A stretch of 64,000 bases of DNA from Chitinophagaceae bacterium (lineage in GTDB: Bacteria; Bacteroidota; Bacteroidia; Chitinophagales; UBA10324). A program made the position numbers and the translations under genes. Each line of letters begins with the position of its first letter. Within the stretch, counting starts at the first letter, position 1. The stretch covers positions 41,146 to 105,145 of the forward strand of contig CANJII010000007.1 of NCBI GenBank assembly GCA_947474435.1, read 5' to 3'. Positions 2,189 through 39,136 of the stretch are shown here, one piece after another. The notes under the pieces are model-generated. The model was not told where the DNA came from. It ran no database searches and worked only from the letters and a program-made list of their open reading frames with translations.

Positions 2189-3568
2189 TTATTTGTCGAA
2201 TAAAATTATTTCTACTCTTCGGTTAATTGCTCTTCCATGTTCTTCTGAATTATCAGCAATTGGGTCTTCAAAATTGTAACCTGCAATTTTTAACCGTTGC
2301 CATGCTACTCCCTTTATTATCAGATAATCCATTACAGCATTGGCTCTGCTTTCCGATAATTTTTGGTTGTATTTTTTGGAACCTACATTGTCAGTATAAC
2401 CGGTTAGCTCGCATCTGAGGTCAAGATGTTTTTTCAGGTAGTTAGCAAGTTCGTTTAAATTATTTTTTGAAGAATCGGGAATAACAGCTGAAGCCGAAGC
2501 AAAATTGATATTGGTAACTGCAAACCTATCCTGCTCCACATCATCGAGCGAATCTTGTATTGATTGCTGATCGGGGATAATTTTACCGGTAAGTATTGAT
2601 TGAAAATCTAATTTTTCACTCAGATCAGGATAGTCTTTAAACTTTGGCTGGCCCGGATCTTTTAAACTGATTAATGAACCGGCTTCGAGCATTACACCAC
2701 TATCGTAAGCTAAATCACCTACATCGCCAATGGCAATTTTCATGTGGTATTTTTTATAGGGTACAACATAACATGATGCAGTCATTACACCTGTTAATCC
2801 ATCATATTGTAAGTTGTTTAAAATGTCTTTGTTTAATTTTTTCTTTTTCGCTTTGTTGATTTTAAAATCTGAGACTTTATTTTTTTTAACCGGTTTTCTT
2901 TTCTTCTGTACCGGAATGGATTTTTTTAATTCAGGTCGCTTGAAATAATCATTGTCGATATAATACTGGTTACTTAGTTTATCATTCAAAGTATTAATGC
3001 TGACCGGTATGTTTACTCCGGGAATAGTGGCAATATTCAGCCGGCGCACTTTATCACCATTCACAATAAAAGCAAACACATCGTTGTATTTTGATCCTAC
3101 ATATTCAGGATATTCTTCTGAACCGAAAACATAATTGAACATTATTTTATTATTCATCGGAATAAAATCAAATTCAATAACAACGGCATCGCCCGATGTT
3201 CCGTGACTGATTCTGTTTAAGTCTTTATCGCCCTTGGGTTTTCTTCTTGCCTTCGGATCGCTGAAGTATCCTGTTTTGTATGGAATTGTGTTAGCACTAA
3301 ACGCATCGAATACGCTTCCTGATGAAAGTATAATTCCACTATCTATTCCGATTGTTGTTTCAGCCTGGTTAAAAGAACCATAGCCTAAATGTGGAGCAGT
3401 CACTTTTACATTGCCAACAATAATGCCTTGGGTACCAACTAATTTATTTATGAGTTGCTCAGCTGTGTTTGAAGTGTCGACAAGAATTTGGGCGTTGGTA
3501 TTAAATGAAAATAACAAACACAAAAATGAAAGTGAAATAATTTTCATAAAAGAACATTGGCTGTTCAT
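2189..3568 (-). CDS. Secreted protein with choice-of-anchor L-like domain and C-terminal OmpA peptidoglycan-binding domain
   Basis: Signal peptide; FGSEEYPEYVGSKYNDVFAF and IAIGDVGD motifs; OmpA motifs GYTDNVG, NQKLSESRA and NRRVEI. The true start may be ATG at 3547. Confidence 0.8.
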   Translation of the reverse strand: MNSQCSFMKIISLSFLCLLFSFNTNAQILVDTSNTAEQLINKLVGTQGIIVGNVKVTAPHLGYGSFNQAETTIGIDSGIILSSGSVFDAFSANTIPYKTGYFSDPKARRKPKGDKDLNRISHGTSGDAVVIEFDFIPMNNKIMFNYVFGSEEYPEYVGSKYNDVFAFIVNGDKVRRLNIATIPGVNIPVSINTLNDKLSNQYYIDNDYFKRPELKKSIPVQKKRKPVKKNKVSDFKINKAKKKKLNKDILNNLQYDGLTGVMTASCYVVPYKKYHMKIAIGDVGDLAYDSGVMLEAGSLISLKDPGQPKFKDYPDLSEKLDFQSILTGKIIPDQQSIQDSLDDVEQDRFAVTNINFASASAVIPDSSKNNLNELANYLKKHLDLRCELTGYTDNVGSKKYNQKLSESRANAVMDYLIIKGVAWQRLKIAGYNFEDPIADNSEEHGRAINRRVEIILFDK

Positions 3569-3573
3569 GCGCG

Positions 3574-3581
3574 CAAAAATA
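3574..3581 (-). promoter_or_regulatory. Bacteroidota sigma70 -7 element (TATTTTTG)
   Basis: Matches TAnnTTTG on the minus strand just upstream of the OmpA-domain gene. Confidence 0.5.
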
Positions 3582-3690
3582 GAATTCAGAAACTAAGTTA
3601 ACGGATTAATGATTAATTTTTCTTGATCTGTTATTTAATATTTAGTAGTAATAACAAATAGGTTTTTGTTTTTTATAAAGGATTAAAAAA

Positions 3691-4614
3691 TCAGTCCTTT
3701 ACTTTTTCAAAAACAATTCGGTAATGTTCAAAAATTTCGCGTTCGAAAACCAAGAGATTGGCTTGAATTTTAAATCGTTTCATCCATTCTCTGAAAGATC
3801 TGCTTAATAAATAAGTAGGAATAAATGAAATAAAGAGCAGGTATTTATTAAAACTGAATTTTGTAAAAGCCTTTGTCCATCGTTTAATGGTTTCTATATA
3901 ATCTAACCTTCCACTATCAACTGATATTACTTTAAAATGCTCAAGGGCCGGATTTATAATTCCTTCCTTACCATAAGGCAGCCACGAACCCGGAAATACG
4001 CGACAAATAATATCCATCAATTCTTCATTGGTAAATTCCTTTTTATTTAAGTCAGTTTTGTCAAATGGAATATCTTCAAATTTTACCATGTTCGGACCAA
4101 ACACCATGGTCTGACAGTAAAACCTGCCACCAACCGGAAGCAAATCTGATATTTGTTTAAAGTAGGTCTTGTATATTTCTTGCTGTTTACCTGCTTTATA
4201 TTGTTCTACTGAACACAAATGTTCGGGGCTTCCCATGGCAGTTACCACATCAAATTTCCCGAAAGTATCAGGCCTTATTTGTTTCGAATCCATGTGATAG
4301 ACATTCAGTCCGTTTTTCTGACAGGCATCAGCTTGTCCTTGTGCTAATACAACACCATATGTAATTGCACCAAGTTTGTTCAGAAAATCTATAAACGCTC
4401 CCCAGCCGCAACCAATATCTAACACCTTTGTTCCTTTTATTATTTTACAGCCATCAACAATGAACTGATGTTTTTTTGCTTGAGCCTGCTCTGAAGTCAT
4501 TGAAAAATCACCATCGAACCGAGCACAGCTGTAAGCACCTTTTTCGCCCACGCTCATTCTGAATATTTTATCCATTGAGGTATAATGAGCATCTAATTCC
4601 TTTTGATTAGCCAT
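3691..4614 (-). CDS. Cyclopropane-fatty-acyl-phospholipid synthase family SAM methyltransferase
   Basis: AHY, YSCA and VLDIGCGWG motifs; VFPGS and DY..T...W motifs typical of the CFA/CMAS family. Confidence 0.85.
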   Translation of the reverse strand: MANQKELDAHYTSMDKIFRMSVGEKGAYSCARFDGDFSMTSEQAQAKKHQFIVDGCKIIKGTKVLDIGCGWGAFIDFLNKLGAITYGVVLAQGQADACQKNGLNVYHMDSKQIRPDTFGKFDVVTAMGSPEHLCSVEQYKAGKQQEIYKTYFKQISDLLPVGGRFYCQTMVFGPNMVKFEDIPFDKTDLNKKEFTNEELMDIICRVFPGSWLPYGKEGIINPALEHFKVISVDSGRLDYIETIKRWTKAFTKFSFNKYLLFISFIPTYLLSRSFREWMKRFKIQANLLVFEREIFEHYRIVFEKVKD

Positions 4615-4723
4615 GGCTTTTAAGTGTTTTTATAAGTAATGGTTTACGAACTGCAATTACCTGATTGTTCAATTAATTTTTATTCGTGCATTTTATTTGA
4701 AAAAATAAAAATTGAAATTTTTT

Positions 4724-4831
4724 TTAATGATGCTTTATCATGACCAATACACCACCGGCTATAAAAAGCAGCAGCATAACAATCCATATTATAGTTTCAT
4801 GATTTTTTGGTTTTGGCGAAGCATGATTCAT
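4724..4831 (-). CDS. Putative small single-pass membrane protein (35 aa), below the ORF-track cutoff
   Basis: Manual translation MNHASPKPKNHETIIWIVMLLLFIAGGVLVMIKHH*; one clean TM helix; a TGAT-N4-ATCA box lies about 50 bp upstream. Confidence 0.5.
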   Translation of the reverse strand: MNHASPKPKNHETIIWIVMLLLFIAGGVLVMIKHH

Positions 4832-4880
4832 TGCAAAAATTTATTGCAACGAAGAAACCTCAACCGAATTTAAAGAGTAA

Positions 4881-4892
4881 TGATTTTAATCA
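4881..4892. promoter_or_regulatory. FNR-type box TGATTTTAATCA
   Basis: Perfect TGAT-N4-ATCA palindrome between the small ORF/cfa-like gene and rhlE. Confidence 0.5.
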
Positions 4893-4908
4893 TTCATTTT
4901 TAATAGCC

Positions 4909-4916
4909 TACTTTTG
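4909..4916 (+). promoter_or_regulatory. Bacteroidota sigma70 -7 element (TACTTTTG) for rhlE
   Basis: Matches TAnnTTTG about 120 bp upstream of the helicase start. Confidence 0.5.
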
Positions 4917-5035
4917 GCGGCACAACACAATAGATTGAAATCTTATTAAGAGCCGTCTCTATATTATATTCAATCAAATACGGTTTACAATCATTTTAAT
5001 AATCACAAAACAATTTAATTATCAAGAACAACACA

Positions 5036-6418
5036 ATGTCATTCGAGAACTTACATTTAATTGAGCCGATTCTGAAGGCTTTAAAAACAACAGGATACAC
5101 TACACCAACCCCCATTCAGGAACAAGCGATTCCGATTATATTAAAACATAAAGATTTGCTGGGTTGCGCACAAACAGGAACAGGAAAAACCGCCGCATTC
5201 GGCATTCCGATTTTACAATTGCTGAACAGCGGTATGCACAACGATAAAGGGCACCGCAACATTAAGGCGCTGGTGCTTACTCCAACACGGGAACTTGCGA
5301 TTCAGATTCAGGAAAGTTTTTCGACTTACGGAAAATTTGTTGACAGCCGGAACTTAGTAATATTCGGTGGAGTATCGCAACACTCGCAGGTGATTGCGCT
5401 GCGAAACGGTATTGATGTTTTAATTGCCACACCAGGGCGCTTGCTTGATTTAATGCAGCAACGGCATGTGAACCTGCAGCACATTGAATTTTTTGTGCTG
5501 GATGAAGCTGACCGTATGCTTGATATGGGATTTTTGCAGGATGTAAAAAGAGTGATTGCTAAGTTGCCTCACAAGCGGCAGACTTTGTTTTTCTCTGCTA
5601 CCATGCCACCTGAAATTCAGAAGTTGGCTGATACTATTTTAGTGAATCCTGAAAAAGTGGAAGTTACTCCGCAGTCAACCACCGTGGAAGCAATTTCGCA
5701 GGGAGTTTATTATGTGGAGCGCGAGCAGAAAAAAAATCTGCTGATTCATATTCTGCAAAATGAAACCATAAAATCGGCATTGGTATTTACACGCACGAAG
5801 CATGGCGCTGATAAAGTGGTGAAGGAATTGGTGAAGGTGCACATTCATGCTGAAGCCATTCATGGAAATAAATCGCAGAACAACCGGCAGCGTGCGTTAA
5901 CGAATTTTAAAACAGGAAAAATAAAAGTGCTTGTTGCTACTGATATAGCAGCACGCGGAATTGATGTGGATGAACTTTCGCATGTTATAAATTTTGATAT
6001 GCCGAATGTGGCTGAAACTTATGTTCATCGCATTGGCAGAACAGGTAGAGCTGGATTGAGTGGAGTTGCTTTATCGTTTTGCGATTCGGAAGAATTAGGT
6101 GAATTGAAAGACATAAACAAACTGATAGGTAAACCGATTCCGGTTATTACAGATCATCCGTATGCAATATCGTTTGATGATATGCCTTTGAATTTTGTTC
6201 GGAAGCCATCGCCGCAAAGAAGAAATTCTAATTCAGGATTTCGTTCGGGTTCGGGAAGAGGAAGGAGTAATTCTTCAGGTGGTCGCAGTAGTGGCAGCGG
6301 AACACGCAGCGGTGAAAGAAGTGGAAGCGGTCACAGTCACACAAGTGGTGAGGGTAGGAGCGGAAGCAGCACCAGCAGTGGAAGCAAACACAGCAGCAGC
6401 GGAAGAAAGCGGTGGTAG
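5036..6418 (+). CDS. rhlE: DEAD-box RNA helicase (RhlE-like) with Gly/Ser/Arg-rich C-terminal tail
   Basis: Q motif, [31 protein letters not shown] and HRIGRTGR motifs. Confidence 0.9.
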
Positions 6419-6468
6419 ATTAATAAACAGTAAGCAATTTGCAAAGGGCAATAAGGAATAATAAATTA

Positions 6469-6504
6469 GAAAGCCATCTGGTGAAAACGAGATGGCTTTT
6501 TTTT
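6469..6504 (+). terminator. Rho-independent terminator between convergent rhlE and msrA
   Basis: AAAGCCATCT...AGATGGCTTT stem followed by a T run. Confidence 0.85.
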
Positions 6505-6540
6505 AGAAATTTTTTTTGAAATCTGCAAACTGATTACAGA

Positions 6541-7215
6541 TTACTGTTTCAATTTCCCTTCAAATACTTTTCTGAATTTCTCTACTTTCGGAGCAATAAC
6601 TATCTGGCAATATGGAGCGCTGCCGTTCTGATTATAATAATCCTGATGATAATCTTCGGCTTTATAAAATTTTGTAAATGCAGATATTTCAGTTACAACC
6701 GGATCAGTGAAAGCTCCTGAAGCATTTAATTCTATTTTGTATTTTCCGGCTAATGATTTTTGATAATCGTTGTGATAAAAAATGACTGAACGATACTGGG
6801 TTCCTTCATCGCCGCCTTGCCGGTTTAATGTTGTTGGGTCGTGTGCTAACCAAAATGCATGAAGCAACTCATCATAACTTACAATAGCTGGATTGTAGGC
6901 AATCTGCACCACTTCGGCATGCCCTGTTAATCCACTGCATACTTCTTTATATGTTGGATTGGCGACCTGGCCTCCAGCGTAACCTGATGTAACAGATTGC
7001 ACTCCGTTCAGTTGTAAAAAAATTGCTTCGCTGCACCAGAAGCAACCCATTCCGAAAGTTGCTGTGTCCAATGTTTCATTCGGATTTTTTTGATCCGATT
7101 CTGATTTTATTTTTTCGTTCATAGCATTTGTTTTCGTTTCGGTTTGTTGAGCACACGAAAATTGTGTGATACTTAAAAAGGTGAAAAGAATTTTGCTGAA
7201 ATATTTTTTATTCAT
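6541..7215 (-). CDS. msrA: Peptide methionine sulfoxide reductase MsrA with N-terminal export/lipoprotein signal
   Basis: GCFWC, GHAE, QYRS, AEDYHQDY and YC motifs. Confidence 0.95.
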   Translation of the reverse strand: MNKKYFSKILFTFLSITQFSCAQQTETKTNAMNEKIKSESDQKNPNETLDTATFGMGCFWCSEAIFLQLNGVQSVTSGYAGGQVANPTYKEVCSGLTGHAEVVQIAYNPAIVSYDELLHAFWLAHDPTTLNRQGGDEGTQYRSVIFYHNDYQKSLAGKYKIELNASGAFTDPVVTEISAFTKFYKAEDYHQDYYNQNGSAPYCQIVIAPKVEKFRKVFEGKLKQ

Positions 7216-7365
7216 TGAAATTATTTTTTTAATAGGTATTATTCATCAAACAATTTGCATTTCAATGGAATTCATGATTGTTTCACAATTCATGAATCTT
7301 CGATTTCATGTCTGTTTTATTTATTGAGAACAAATAAATTTCAAAACGGTTCAGCCGTTGGGTTT

Positions 7366-28834: not shown

Positions 28835-30442
28835 ATGAAAAAGAAATTAATGTTGGTGCTTTCCTTATTGGTTTTTGCAGTTTTCAGAAGCACTGCGCAA
28901 AATGATAATGCCATACTCGAAAAAATATTGACTGAAGATTCAACAGCAGTAAACGCATTGGTTTTGTATCCTGATTCAACAAGGAGATCAATTCTTGAAG
29001 CATCTCAATTCCCTGAAGTGTTACTTAAAATGCAATCCATGCAGGAAAATTCGCAGAAAGAATTCAATACAATACTTTCTCCTTATACTCAAGAGGTGCA
29101 ACAGGTTTTTTATAATCTCACTCGTTATCCCGGCTTAATAAATCAATTAGTAGCAGGAGGAAAAAAAAGCAAATCGCAACTGCAAAATATTGCTGATAAT
29201 TATCCTGATGAAATCAAAGACGATGCTGTGGTGTATGGTAAAAAATATTTTGATGTGTTGAATTCAATTGATCAATTTTCAAAGAAAAATAATTCTGAAT
29301 TTGAAAATGTGATTTCAACTTATTCAAATGAATCCAATCATGTATTCAGAGATTTAGTTGAATTACCTGAAGTGCTTAATATATTGACTGATAATATTAA
29401 AATGACGGTTATGATTGGTGATTTGTATCGAAGAAATCCGACATGGGTGCTTCATAAAACTGATTCATTGAATATGGAAGCTGCTCGACAACACGCTGAG
29501 GAGTTAGCTGATTGGAAAAAGAAAATGGATGAAGATCCGGATGCGAAAAAGCAATTGGAAGAATCGGCAAAAAAATATGCTGATGAAAACGGTTATCGTA
29601 CTGATGTGTATTCGAGCCCGCGTACTGATGTGTTCATTGATCATTACTTAGTTTATCCATATCCATACTGGTTCGGTTATCCGGGATGGTATCCACATTA
29701 TTATTGGTATCCATATCCTTACTGGTATGATTGGGGATTTTATTATGGCCCTTACGGACAAATAATTATCTTCAATTATCCTTCTTATTATTTTACTTAT
29801 TGGTTCTTTTATCATCCTATGAATTTTTATCACTATCCATATTTGTGCAATCACTTTGTTAATCATTATTATGGCCATCATCATTCCTACATGAATGGAA
29901 ACGCGCCTGTTAGAAACTGGGTGAATCAAAATGAAAAATATTTTTCCAAAGATTTTGCAACTAATGATTTAAGCCGTATAAATCAAATTAAAGAATTTGG
30001 TCAGTTGCAAAAAGATGTTTCAGATTACAATGTTAGCCGGCCTGCTAATCAGCAATTAACCACTCAGCAATATATTCAGACTTATAAAGAAAAATATCCT
30101 GATTTGAATGTGAAGCCAACCGTACAACCAATGGAAAGTAAGGATCAATGGTTTCAGCAACCACCTGCCAAGCAGCCACCAATAAAAGTTCCTTCACCAA
30201 CTCAAAAGGATAAACAGCCAATTCAGATTCCGCAAAATCAACCAACCCCATTTCCTCAGCCAAAATTTGATCAGAATAAAAATGCTCAGGATTTTCATAA
30301 GCAAACATGGGAGCAAAACAGGCCTCCGGTGTTTACTCCCAAAGTGAATCCACAACCAATTCCTAAGCAACAGCCAAAGTCAACTCCTCAACCAAAAACA
30401 GATCCACCTAAAACTCAAAAGCAAGTAACCAAACCAAAATAA
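28835..30442 (+). CDS. Secreted protein with helical N-terminus (DUF3300-like), Tyr/Trp/Pro-rich segment and Pro/Gln-rich tail
   Basis: Signal peptide; ALVLYPD...ILEASQFP; YPYPYWFGYPGWYP repeats; PQPK-rich C-terminus. Confidence 0.65.
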   Translation: MKKKLMLVLSLLVFAVFRSTAQNDNAILEKILTEDSTAVNALVLYPDSTRRSILEASQFPEVLLKMQSMQENSQKEFNTILSPYTQEVQQVFYNLTRYPGLINQLVAGGKKSKSQLQNIADNYPDEIKDDAVVYGKKYFDVLNSIDQFSKKNNSEFENVISTYSNESNHVFRDLVELPEVLNILTDNIKMTVMIGDLYRRNPTWVLHKTDSLNMEAARQHAEELADWKKKMDEDPDAKKQLEESAKKYADENGYRTDVYSSPRTDVFIDHYLVYPYPYWFGYPGWYPHYYWYPYPYWYDWGFYYGPYGQIIIFNYPSYYFTYWFFYHPMNFYHYPYLCNHFVNHYYGHHHSYMNGNAPVRNWVNQNEKYFSKDFATNDLSRINQIKEFGQLQKDVSDYNVSRPANQQLTTQQYIQTYKEKYPDLNVKPTVQPMESKDQWFQQPPAKQPPIKVPSPTQKDKQPIQIPQNQPTPFPQPKFDQNKNAQDFHKQTWEQNRPPVFTPKVNPQPIPKQQPKSTPQPKTDPPKTQKQVTKPK

Positions 30443-34760: not shown

Positions 34761-34773
34761 AAAATATTATATT

Positions 34774-35424
34774 CTATATTCGAAAAAAAGAATTTCTATC
34801 TGCAATTTTCCATAATCTATAGCAGCTTAAAGCAAACAATGGGGCAGCCAAAATATCAATCGAATAATGTACATGCTGTTTCAATAAAAAAGCAGCCACC
34901 AGAAAAGTACTGAGCATAAAAATTATTTTCAACCATCGCCTTTCTTCAAAAAGAAAAATCAAAAACAAGATGGAAACATGCCCGGAGAAGAAAAGATCTT
35001 TGTCAATGTAATTTCCAGCGTATGCAAACCGACCGATAAACGGATCGACAAGATCAATGTATCCTGATGGTGCATTTAAAGGAACAAGCCAGATACTTAT
35101 TATTCGAAGAAAGGTGAGAAGAAGATAACACTGCAAAACCCGGAGAAGCATAACCGGAAATTTGTAAAATGAAAAAACTGCAACAACAATAGTTGAATAA
35201 ATAAGCACAAAGATGGCCGTTGAAAAATTTTGCGGAGTCAGGATATTTAATAACTCATCATTAATCACAATGCCATTTCTGCTTTGTATAAATAAAAAAA
35301 ATTGTGGTATGAAAATAAGTACCGCACATAAACCAATTGTGGTTATAAGTAATTGAAGTCTGAAAGACCGGATACGCAATGCCTTTTGCCAACTAAGATT
35401 ACTTTCTTTGAATTGACTGATCAT
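34774..35424 (-). CDS. Sphingomyelin-synthase-like (PAP2_C) membrane phosphotransferase
   Basis: About 6 TM helices; DLFFSGH and HYSIDI motifs match the SMS/IPC-synthase catalytic His and His-x3-Asp motifs; ATG at 35424. Confidence 0.75.
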   Translation of the reverse strand: MISQFKESNLSWQKALRIRSFRLQLLITTIGLCAVLIFIPQFFLFIQSRNGIVINDELLNILTPQNFSTAIFVLIYSTIVVAVFSFYKFPVMLLRVLQCYLLLTFLRIISIWLVPLNAPSGYIDLVDPFIGRFAYAGNYIDKDLFFSGHVSILFLIFLFEERRWLKIIFMLSTFLVAAFLLKQHVHYSIDILAAPLFALSCYRLWKIADRNSFFRI

Positions 35425-35431
35425 GTTTTTT

Positions 35432-36190
35432 TCAGAATAGTTTTTCCACTTGCTTCTTCTGACTAATTGCATAATCGTATCCTGTTTTAAAAATATTTTC
35501 TGCATCATCCATATCCAGTATTCCGAATTTCGAAAGGAGGGGAGGTTCAATAAATAAATGACACATCGTTTTTTTCTGTTTCATACTTTCTGAAACTGCA
35601 ATGTGAAAACTTCGGTCAATCACATTGGCAATACTCAGCTTCTTACATTCAGCATTCAGTGGATTTACATGTGAAGCAATAATAATATCACAGTTATTGA
35701 GCAAAGGTTCTACTGGTAAATTATTGGTAAGCCCTCCCTCCAATATTGTCATGTTTCTATATTCAACAGGTTCGTAAAAAGCAGGCATTGCAGAACTTCC
35801 AAGCAGCACCGGCACCAATTCTCCTTCAGAAAAATAAACCGGTTTGCAATTAATAAAATCTGTTGCGCAAACAGTCAAAGGCAATTTAAGTTTTTCGAAA
35901 GTCAGGTTTTTAAAATGGAATTCTAAATCTGTTTGCAAAGCAGTTGGTTTAAAAATTCCACCCTGAGTTAATCTCAAATCTGTTATGCGATACATTTTAG
36001 TAGAAGCGGCAATTTTGAAAATTTCATTGGCTTGGTAACCAGCGGCATAATAGGCCCCCACAATGCTTCCAACACTCACGCCCGAAATTATTCCGGGCTT
36101 AATACCAAATTCTTCCAGTGCTTTTATAATTCCGATGTGAGCAATTCCTCTTGCTGCGCCTCCAGATAATGCTAATCCGATTTTGGGCAT
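35432..36190 (-). CDS. Patatin-like phospholipase
   Basis: SGGAARG glycine loop, GVSVG nucleophile elbow, and EGG in place of DGG; ATG at 36190. Confidence 0.9.
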   Translation of the reverse strand: MPKIGLALSGGAARGIAHIGIIKALEEFGIKPGIISGVSVGSIVGAYYAAGYQANEIFKIAASTKMYRITDLRLTQGGIFKPTALQTDLEFHFKNLTFEKLKLPLTVCATDFINCKPVYFSEGELVPVLLGSSAMPAFYEPVEYRNMTILEGGLTNNLPVEPLLNNCDIIIASHVNPLNAECKKLSIANVIDRSFHIAVSESMKQKKTMCHLFIEPPLLSKFGILDMDDAENIFKTGYDYAISQKKQVEKLF

Positions 36191-36200
36191 TGTTGGTTTG

Positions 36201-37325
36201 TTAAATATTCTTCTTGTAAATTCTGTATCGCTTGTAAATTTTTCCTCCAAATTTTTCTGCCACACTTCGCATTGGTTTGTTGGTTTCCAAAATCAAGTGA
36301 CTATCAATAAAAGATAAATTTCTTTTCCGTGCTGAATTCAAAAGTGTTATGGCAAGTATGGCAGTAAGTCCACAGCCTTTCCATGGGTCTTTAACAGCAC
36401 CAAGAAATAAATCCAATTGTTTTGACTTTTTACCGGAAGAAAGAATATGTATAAAACCAAACGGAAAAAGTTTGCCTCCAGCTTTTTTAATTCCTGCACT
36501 GATGTCGGGCGACGAAACAATAAATGCAATTGGATTATTGTATTCGTCAGTAACCACTTTACTGAATTCCGGATCGAGCATTGGCAGGTATTTTTTTGCC
36601 AGGTCAAACATTTCATTCTCGCTCATTTCAATAAATCCATACAATGATTTATAAGTTTCATTCATCAGGCCCATAACCGGAATAATAAATTTTTTTAATT
36701 CACTTCGCTTGCTGAACTCCATAACTTTAATTTTCGGGTTTTTAATTACCCGCTCATAAATACTTTGATATAACGGAGGGATTTCCGATGGTACCTTAAT
36801 ATTGTAAACCACACAGTCAATTTCTTTTTCAAAACCATTTTGTTCAACCAGTTTTGGCAGGTATTCCATGTTGGTTGCTGTGGCAATTACAGGTAAATAC
36901 TGAAAACCTTCAATCTGCAATCCCTGTGGATCTTTATCTGAAAAACCAAACGGGCCAATCAGTTTGTTCATTCCCTTTTCTTTAGCCCATTGTTCAACAG
37001 CATATAATAAAGCTGTAGAAACTTCTATCTCATCAGAACACTCAAGATTAAAAAACCTTGCAGTGGTTTCATTATTGACTGAATTATATCCACGGTGTAT
37101 GATCCCCATTATTCTTCCAGAAATTATTCCATTATTATAAGCAAGAAATAAAACAGTATCAGACTGCGATAACTGGTGATTGTATTTTGGGGTATAAAAT
37201 TTCCATTCATCAGCATAAATGGGTGGAAGCCAGTTACTGTTTAGCGCATGAATTTTTTTCGGAAGGAAAATAAATTCCTTCAAATCAATTTTGTCAGAAA
37301 CAGTTTTTATTTCAACCGGCATCAT
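36201..37325 (-). CDS. Tandem-GNAT acyltransferase of the YghO / bacterial ceramide synthase-like family
   Basis: FI.LP......NW.PP, FLA...G...GRI, LL..VE.WAKE.GM..LIGPFGF.D.D..G..IEGF and ILETN.PM motifs. Confidence 0.7.
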   Translation of the reverse strand: MMPVEIKTVSDKIDLKEFIFLPKKIHALNSNWLPPIYADEWKFYTPKYNHQLSQSDTVLFLAYNNGIISGRIMGIIHRGYNSVNNETTARFFNLECSDEIEVSTALLYAVEQWAKEKGMNKLIGPFGFSDKDPQGLQIEGFQYLPVIATATNMEYLPKLVEQNGFEKEIDCVVYNIKVPSEIPPLYQSIYERVIKNPKIKVMEFSKRSELKKFIIPVMGLMNETYKSLYGFIEMSENEMFDLAKKYLPMLDPEFSKVVTDEYNNPIAFIVSSPDISAGIKKAGGKLFPFGFIHILSSGKKSKQLDLFLGAVKDPWKGCGLTAILAITLLNSARKRNLSFIDSHLILETNKPMRSVAEKFGGKIYKRYRIYKKNI

Positions 37326-37438
37326 ATAATGTTTCGGGTTAAAAATAGCAGGATGCTTCAGTTAAATTTATTATTGATTTGTAAAAGTGAGTTTTCCATT
37401 ATTTTGAAAGAAGAAATACTGCTGTAGATAAACTGAGG

Positions 37439-37512
<74 letters not shown>

Positions 37513-39012: not shown

Positions 39013-39046
39013 GAAAGAGCTCGACGAAAGTTGCGCTCTTTTTTTT
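39013..39046 (+). terminator. Rho-independent terminator after the dipeptidase gene
   Basis: AAAGAGC...GCTCTTT stem around a GAAA loop, followed by a T run. Confidence 0.8.
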
Positions 39047-39052
39047 GTCTCA

Positions 39053-39079
39053 GCAGGGTTTCTTTAATCAAAACCCTGC
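39053..39079. repeat. REP-like hairpin GCAGGGTTT-N9-AAACCCTGC
   Basis: Perfect 9-bp inverted repeat, followed by a degenerate second copy at about 39089-39113. Confidence 0.45.
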
Positions 39080-39136
39080 GTTTGCATGGCAGGTTCTGTT
39101 AGTATAAACCAGCTGTTTCAGAAAATTATTCATCAG

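Follow-up and report, generated by a model that had tools for sequence, protein, structure and literature searches.

Do three adjacent genes for an N-acyltransferase, a patatin-like lipase and a membrane protein of the sphingomyelin synthase (SMS) type serve one and the same lipid, and which lipid would this be in a bacterium whose genome contains no gene for serine palmitoyltransferase (Spt)? The question is raised by a locus in a stretch of 64,000 nucleotides (the whole of it is called the window hereafter) from a Chitinophagaceae bacterium (GCA_947474435.1, contig CANJII010000007.1, positions 41,146-105,145 of the forward strand). An earlier note on this DNA had proposed a de novo phosphosphingolipid operon, in which gene 1 would N-acylate a serine-derived base and gene 3 would add a phospho-headgroup to the ceramide. 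The explanation favored here, though only tentatively, is an acquired cassette in which a bacterial ceramide synthase (bCerS)-like N-acyltransferase and an SMS-like headgroup transferase serve one common amide lipid and the lipase plays a supporting part.

The three genes and their protein families

Read from the sequence, the genes run in one direction on the minus strand, as the earlier note had stated, with gaps of 10 bp between genes 1 and 2 and of 7 bp between genes 2 and 3. Those gene starts were chosen that agree with the N-termini of homologs in alignments; for gene 3, alternative upstream starts exist at 35472 and 35550, and the longer version of the gene caller (232 amino acids) would overlap gene 2, so that the trio is tightly packed under either start. 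An NCBIfam scan gave no model above its cut-off for any of the three proteins.

The product of gene 3 (34774..35424, minus strand), a six-helix membrane protein of 216 amino acids, belongs to the SMS-type enzymes within the PAP2 superfamily, since it passes the Pfam PAP2_C model (34.5 bits, cut-off 27; 37.6 bits in the genome-wide scan), its family profile matches SMSr and its modeled fold is SMSr-like. The motifs DLFFSGH and HYSIDI, which the earlier note had assigned to the SMS/inositol phosphorylceramide (IPC) synthase branch, are indeed present, and D56, R107, D143, S147, G148, H149, H186, Y187 and D190 were invariant in 21 of 21 aligned homologs. The profile of this 21-member family matched human SMSr (8ijq, 8ijr) with an E-value of 3e-10 in two stretches: at the catalytic C-terminus, DLFFSGH aligns with DYMFSGH of SMSr and HYSID with HYSID, and in the N-terminal helices (domain 1, 18 bits) D56 and R107 fall on LPD and LLR of SMSr, stretches that we take to be the D1 'PLPD' and D2 Arg motifs of Huitema et al. 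The next profile match was the lipid A phosphatase LpxE with an E-value of 0.044. The AlphaFold 2 model (predicted local distance difference test (pLDDT) score 90.3; six long helices) found its best match in the Protein Data Bank (PDB) in 8ijq_A (template modeling (TM) score 0.65, E 7.7e-4), followed by LpxE and then by Aur1/IPC synthase structures (ranks 3-4, TM 0.50-0.51).

The likeness to the eukaryotic SMS1, SMS2 and SMSr (PAP2_C, 8ijq) comprises the SGH and HxxxD residues, the aligned Asp and Arg, and the six-helix fold. In contrast to SMSr, the protein is bacterial and much reduced in size, without a SAM domain or long loops and with 15% identity in the structural alignment, and it is known here from sequence and model, in a genome that lacks a ceramide pathway. 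By analogy, gene 3 should cleave the phosphodiester of a glycerophospholipid via a phospho-histidine: His186 would attack the donor, possibly phosphatidylethanolamine, diacylglycerol would leave, and the phospho-headgroup would then pass to the hydroxyl of a lipid alcohol or, in a phospholipase-C-like reaction, to water.

Gene 1 (36201..37325, minus strand) encodes a tandem-GNAT N-acyltransferase of 374 amino acids. The bCerS enzymes are GNAT-type proteins related to YghO, and the resemblance of gene 1 to the bCerS/YghO family, claimed by the earlier note, was confirmed on the YghO side by an end-to-end alignment with YghO of Escherichia coli (residues 6-374, 27% identity, E 2e-46). In Pfam, Acetyltransf_1 was weakly detected in the C-terminal part only (21.9 bits, cut-off 20.7); the AlphaFold 2 model (pLDDT 90.8) has a tandem-GNAT fold, and its top PDB matches 5kf1, 7q3a and 2wpw (TM 0.57-0.64) are MshD, MAB_4324 and a clostridial glucosamine N-acetyltransferase. 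The family comprises 3652 proteins at E<=0.001; at E<=1e-20, 223 of 251 genomes sampled from the phylum have members, and a genome holds one to three copies. In many genomes (e.g. at L014, L102, L165-L169, L171), the family GNAT lies between genes for Spt and for an NAD-dependent epimerase-type reductase; the L014 protein is 37% identical to gene 1 (E 4e-83). The same arrangement occurs at L160, in a metagenome-assembled genome (MAG) that bears the label Anaeromyxobacter, and at L163, in a MAG with the label Alphaproteobacteria, the GNAT adjoins an Spt-like gene. Because this gene order matches the published arrangement of Spt, bCerS and CerR genes, described as often clustered in the available text of PMC11334938, the gene 1 family, placed via YghO homology and Spt-operon context, is very probably the bCerS family.

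The GNAT matches of L163 (G041:C1:636675-637790) and of a second genome (G153:C12:18165-19286) lie within open frames of 853 and 839 amino acids, respectively, which are probably Spt-GNAT fusion proteins. A search with NF047603, intended to reach a bCerS of the Caulobacter type by way of Spt synteny, covered 61 genomes from the same class as G041 and gave 0 matches at E<=1e-100.

Within the family, a quick maximum-likelihood tree of 74 rows (open reading frames of less than 300 amino acids and the duplicates or near-duplicates L142, L144, L158, L159 and L161 were left out) placed gene 1 in clade IIa (21 rows, SH-aLRT 99). An Spt-type gene was found within 2.5 kb in ten of the 74 rows: six of 23 in clade I, four of 30 in clade IIb and none of 21 in clade IIa. 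The assignment to bCerS made in the earlier note thus very probably holds for the wider, Spt-linked family and is not supported by the surroundings of gene 1's own subclade; in contrast to bCerS of Caulobacter (CC_1154/CCNA_01212), with whose family gene 1 shares the full-length YghO match and the occurrence in Spt-GNAT-reductase operons, it belongs to a separate subclade without Spt linkage and to a genome without Spt. The GNAT homologs of the same genus, the 'core' copies, fall in clade IIb, and their identity to gene 1 is no higher than about 32%. Such a core copy is also present in the genome of the window as a second paralog (C72), which is cut by a contig end and adjoins mreBCD.

Gene 2 (35432..36190, minus strand) encodes a patatin-like lipase of 252 amino acids (Pfam Patatin, 113 bits, E 2.5e-32). 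It resembles RssA-type patatins in the Patatin domain, the GxSxG motif and the glycine-rich oxyanion motif but reached 90 bits against the RssA equivalog cut-off of 272. In an alignment of 19 patatins, G37, S39 and G41 (the GxSxG motif with the Ser39 nucleophile) as well as SGG at 9-11 (the glycine-rich loop) were invariant. The catalytic-Asp motif reads DG[GA] in 17 of the 19 proteins and EGG, where Glu151 occupies the position of the catalytic Asp, in gene 2 (codon at 35738-35740 of the window) and its 74% identical homolog P0163, a further difference from the RssA-type enzymes.

Gene linkage and the island beside tRNA-Ala

At least 560 species genomes encode a member of the PAP2_C family, as do 42 of the 251 genomes of the phylum sample. 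Neighborhoods were counted in the best 80 loci. A family GNAT gene adjoined PAP2_C in four of them (L013, L014, L015, L092), with overlapping or abutting genes in L013 and L015. Together with the window, this adjacency spans three GNAT clades, namely IIa (window), IIb (L013, L015) and I (L014, L092). For a family of one to three copies per genome, a linkage that recurs in three clades is hard to put down to chance, and it provides the main argument for both enzymes serving one lipid. A patatin gene adjoined PAP2_C in a single locus, L015.

The clearest of these loci is L014 (Bacteroidetes MAG, 2629-7361), in which genes for Spt (687 bits, cut-off 640), GNAT, epimerase-type reductase and PAP2_C follow each other on one strand, with a CDP-diacylglycerol-serine O-phosphatidyltransferase gene convergent to the operon. 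To judge from its gene content, no other locus makes so clean a candidate for an operon with a bacterial phosphoceramide synthase of the SMS type; the L092 locus reads GNAT-reductase-PAP2_C up to the point where its contig ends upstream. The sphingolipid operon with an SMS-like gene that had been proposed for the window therefore has a counterpart in the L014 MAG, although the genome of the window itself lacks Spt; both rows, and the presence of all SMS-type motifs in gene 3, speak for the de novo pathway in principle.

Other neighbors of PAP2_C in the 80 loci were an esterase gene upstream (11 loci), a NagB/PIG-L fusion gene upstream (12 loci), and genes for a PhyH-type Fe/2-oxoglutarate dioxygenase and a short-chain dehydrogenase (SDR) downstream on the same strand (22 loci, e.g. 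L046:6760-7575).

The three genes are the sole content of a species-specific island of 2.7 kb (34768..37436), which was delimited by comparison with the closest genome of the same genus (G004). Both flanks match that genome at 83-90% nucleotide identity, and the similarity to same-genus genomes restarts exactly at a tRNA-Ala(GGC) gene (37437..37512, minus strand, identified by ARAGORN; query position 6939), which forms the right-hand boundary. At the corresponding site of G004, between the SDR gene and tRNA-Ala, 3.4 kb with MlaE/MlaF/MlaD-like genes and an open reading frame of 141 amino acids are found (L138:980-3558; named by eye from translations). This variable, tRNA-Ala-flanked site thus holds different lipid-related cargoes in the two genomes, one having been exchanged for the other. 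No integrase was found at the island, and the direct repeats sought at its ends as att-like sites were short and at chance level. The occurrence in relatives that had been expected of such an operon was not observed: neither gene 3 nor the trio was found in any of six other genomes of the genus, gene 3 was found in two of 24 genomes of the family, and the complete trio was found at none of the 80 PAP2_C genome loci and none of 19 metagenome loci. Three studies of lake and freshwater metagenomes have DNA runs that contain nearly the whole stretch, and the assembly may itself derive from some of these runs; no RNA run was among those listed. Given these runs, the arrangement appears to be stable in nature.

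A scan for promoters, which covers the sigma-70 type only, returned 16 promoter-like sites where 12.5 were expected; the only terminator-like site returned lies within the SDR gene. Elsewhere in the window, positions 28835-30442 encode a protein of 535 amino acids with a signal-peptide-like start, whose core is extremely rich in Tyr, Pro and Trp (runs of the YPYPYW type) and whose tail is rich in Pro, Gln and Lys. Some 45 nucleotides just 3' of a peptidase gene (approximately 39039-39083) form a stretch that recurs at 85-95% identity on many same-genus contigs and is probably a small dispersed repeat.

Long-chain-base synthesis in the genome

As noted earlier, no Spt gene lies in the window, and none was detected in the rest of the 99.9%-complete genome, where seven alpha-oxoamine-synthase/aminotransferase candidates all remained below the Spt cut-off. 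The best scores on the Spt model NF047600 were 353 bits for a true Kbl and 309 bits for a cysteate fatty acyltransferase (CFAT), the cut-off for Bacteroidota Spt being 640. The three alpha-oxoamine synthases of the genome are this Kbl (677 bits on TIGR01822, cut-off 493), the CFAT and a BioF-like protein. With 598 bits to Capnocytophaga CFAT 28eh (COCFAT), 571 bits to Alistipes SulA 7u7h and 248 bits to Spt 3a2b, the CFAT is the only long-chain-base synthase of the genome; its gene lies between clpB and a gene of 504 amino acids on another contig than the island (C24:33423-34664; L006:1366-2607).

According to the available text of PMC13692747, CFATs strongly prefer cysteate to serine, and activity with serine was not gained by engineering variants of them. 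Since Spt is absent and the sole long-chain-base synthase is of this cysteate-preferring type, the organism is predicted from its gene content to make capnine-type sulfonolipids, not ceramide; the only base made de novo would be of the capnine type, derived from cysteate. As the genome lacks Spt, the product of the trio would not be a serine-derived de novo phosphosphingolipid, and the island probably acts on a lipid other than a de novo sphingolipid. The pathway of the earlier note, N-acylation of a newly made sphingoid base and attachment of a headgroup, thus fits L014 well and is unlikely for the organism of the window. The isolation of the gene 1 subclade from Spt and the rarity of PAP2_C in Spt-positive genomes of the phylum sample (only one of 11) argue in the same direction.

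The distribution of base synthases among PAP2_C-positive genomes is mixed. Among 19 such genomes checked, the window genome included, five held a canonical Spt (G043, G167, G356, G357, G358), which is in favor of the de novo pathway, one held an Spt-like enzyme (465 bits) and 13 held neither; some of these genomes were picked by name and kin are not independent, so that the counts are descriptive. In one genome (G214), a clade-IIa GNAT is the sole family member at E<=1e-20 and occurs together with CFAT and PAP2_C but without Spt, which speaks for the favored explanation. In the phylum sample, CFAT orthologs were present in 94 of 251 genomes and Spt, at the strict threshold of E<=1e-170, in 11 of 251; Spt-like enzymes of 455-479 bits occurred in five genomes of three other families (all five checked). 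Because the strict threshold undercounts Spt, no inference is drawn from its frequency in comparison with that of the GNAT family.

In five genomes of one family, a tandem-GNAT family member of 372-373 amino acids is convergent to the CFAT gene (L188:2431-3549, L189:3400-4521, L190:3245-4363, L191:3949-5067, L193:3142-4260), which it abuts in four cases and from which it is separated by one small open reading frame in L191; a gene for a Phenol_MetA_deg outer-membrane channel precedes the GNAT gene. This CFAT-linked GNAT is a candidate capnine N-acyltransferase. In the sulfonolipid pathway (cysteate synthase, CFAT SulA/CapB and 3-ketocapnine reductase; PMC13692747, PMC11211663, PMC9304779), the N-acylation of capnine mirrors the bCerS step, and in the available text of these papers the N-acyltransferase is not named and the verified enzymes do not include one for such a step. 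Unlike the CFAT-linked GNAT genes, the island is not located beside CFAT.

Competing explanations and significance

According to the favored explanation, the trio was horizontally acquired, inserted beside tRNA-Ala and probably co-transcribed, the latter being suggested by the gene spacing. Gene 1 would transfer a second acyl chain from acyl-CoA or acyl-ACP onto a long-chain amino-lipid base, gene 3 would add the phospho-headgroup to the resulting amide lipid, and gene 2 would deacylate the substrate or a by-product, or supply acyl chains; the coupling of genes 1 and 3 and the identity of donor and acceptor are what we infer. Several observations weigh against this explanation. N-acyl-capnine should be a poor acceptor for an SMS-type enzyme because its C1 bears a sulfonate instead of a hydroxyl (PMC9304779, as far as its available text goes). 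There is no GNAT gene near PAP2_C in 76 of the 80 loci and an alpha-oxoamine synthase within 6 kb in just one (L014), the single patatin adjacency is convergent, and in the PAP2_C tree, whose base is unresolved, gene 3 is not placed with the GNAT-linked copies, nor can it be set apart from them. At the 10 loci of the nearest gene 1 relatives (47-60% identity), the neighbors vary and include no patatin or PAP2_C, and no conserved neighbors were found in the 20 loci of close relatives that were searched. Finally, the catalytic activity of gene 2 is uncertain because Glu replaces the catalytic Asp.

A possible, though rather doubtful, alternative is an uncoupled turnover of phospholipids, in which gene 3 would act in a phospholipase-C-like manner to give diacylglycerol, the patatin would deacylate, and gene 1 would be an extra capnine N-acyltransferase; the outcome would be more phosphorus-free sulfonolipid and a membrane shifted away from phospholipids. 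Such a turnover would agree with the capnine-type, not serine-type, base of the genome, with the family GNAT beside CFAT in five genomes of one family, and with at least 11 PAP2_C-positive genomes (that of the window included) which hold CFAT- and Kbl-level synthases without Spt or an Spt-like enzyme. To judge from a title by Murakami and Sakane of 2021, SMSr in the absence of ceramide reportedly hydrolyzes glycerophospholipids to diacylglycerol. However, an operon-level linkage of GNAT and PAP2_C in three GNAT clades is not expected of independently acting enzymes, the surroundings of the island yielded neither a signal nor a regulator of phosphate starvation, and the genome already possesses its second, core GNAT paralog.

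It is improbable that the three genes are functionally unrelated neighbors which, jointly or one by one, came to lie at a variable site flanked by a tRNA gene. The site is indeed variable within the genus, each of the three families mostly occurs alone, and the trio recurred in none of the genome or metagenome loci; this is opposed by the very tight spacing on one strand, by the fact that three of three genes encode lipid enzymes, and by the independent recurrence of the GNAT-PAP2_C adjacency, and contigs of equal size hint at, but do not show, a linkage of close homologs, at 6729 bp for genes 1 and 3 and at 7964 bp for genes 2 and 3. The de novo phosphosphingolipid operon, largely refuted in this organism by the absence of any candidate at the Spt cut-off, is the least probable explanation of all.

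A wider proposal in two parts may be made, whose joint validity has to be regarded as unlikely. Its first part states that GNAT-(patatin)-SMS-like cassettes of Bacteroidota without Spt and with CFAT would make an undescribed phosphorus-containing amide lipid, in which a headgroup from a glycerophospholipid is placed on the hydroxyl of an N-acylated non-serine long-chain base or of an imported sphingoid; we know of no phospho-derivative of sulfonolipids. Its second part states that the PAP2_C family would represent the SMS-type phosphoceramide synthase of environmental bacteria, e.g. Pedobacter and Mucilaginibacter, among which there are culturable carriers of PAP2_C that also have Spt.

The nearest characterized bacterial precedent for the proposed chemistry is BT_1522 of Bacteroides thetaiotaomicron, an AUR1-like enzyme that attaches a phospho-headgroup to dihydroceramide as a phosphatidylinositol-dihydroceramide (IPC) synthase (PMC9246714, PMC8791184). 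It differs from gene 3 in being related to yeast AUR1, whereas gene 3 is SMS-like, and in its location in an inositol-lipid operon of an Spt-positive genome. A PAP2_C scan of B. thetaiotaomicron, included as a control, gave no match, and the available text of PMC8791184 reports that a BLAST search with the Drosophila ceramide phosphoethanolamine synthase found no ethanolamine-phosphoceramide synthase in that species. No publication dealing with a ceramide phosphotransferase of the PAP2_C or SMS-like kind in bacteria came up in the literature search. Hence the chemistry and both families are known, and the bacterial pairing of GNAT and SMS-like enzymes, above all in a presumed sulfonolipid producer without Spt, appears to be undescribed in the literature searched.

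As far as the available texts of these papers extend, the AUR1-like BT_1522 is the sole described enzyme found for placing a phospho-headgroup on a bacterial ceramide. As a by-product of the comparison, the CFAT-linked GNAT offers a candidate for the N-acylation step of capnine in sulfonolipid formation. The same GNAT-PAP2_C pairing in a genome predicted to make sulfonolipid-type bases only presents a puzzle, which would be solved either by another acceptor or by an action of gene 3 as a lipase. The SMS-like family, present in about one in six genomes of the phylum and encoded by the fourth gene of the Spt operon in L014, may provide a testable candidate for such enzymes in environmental bacteria, which would attach a phospho-headgroup to ceramide.

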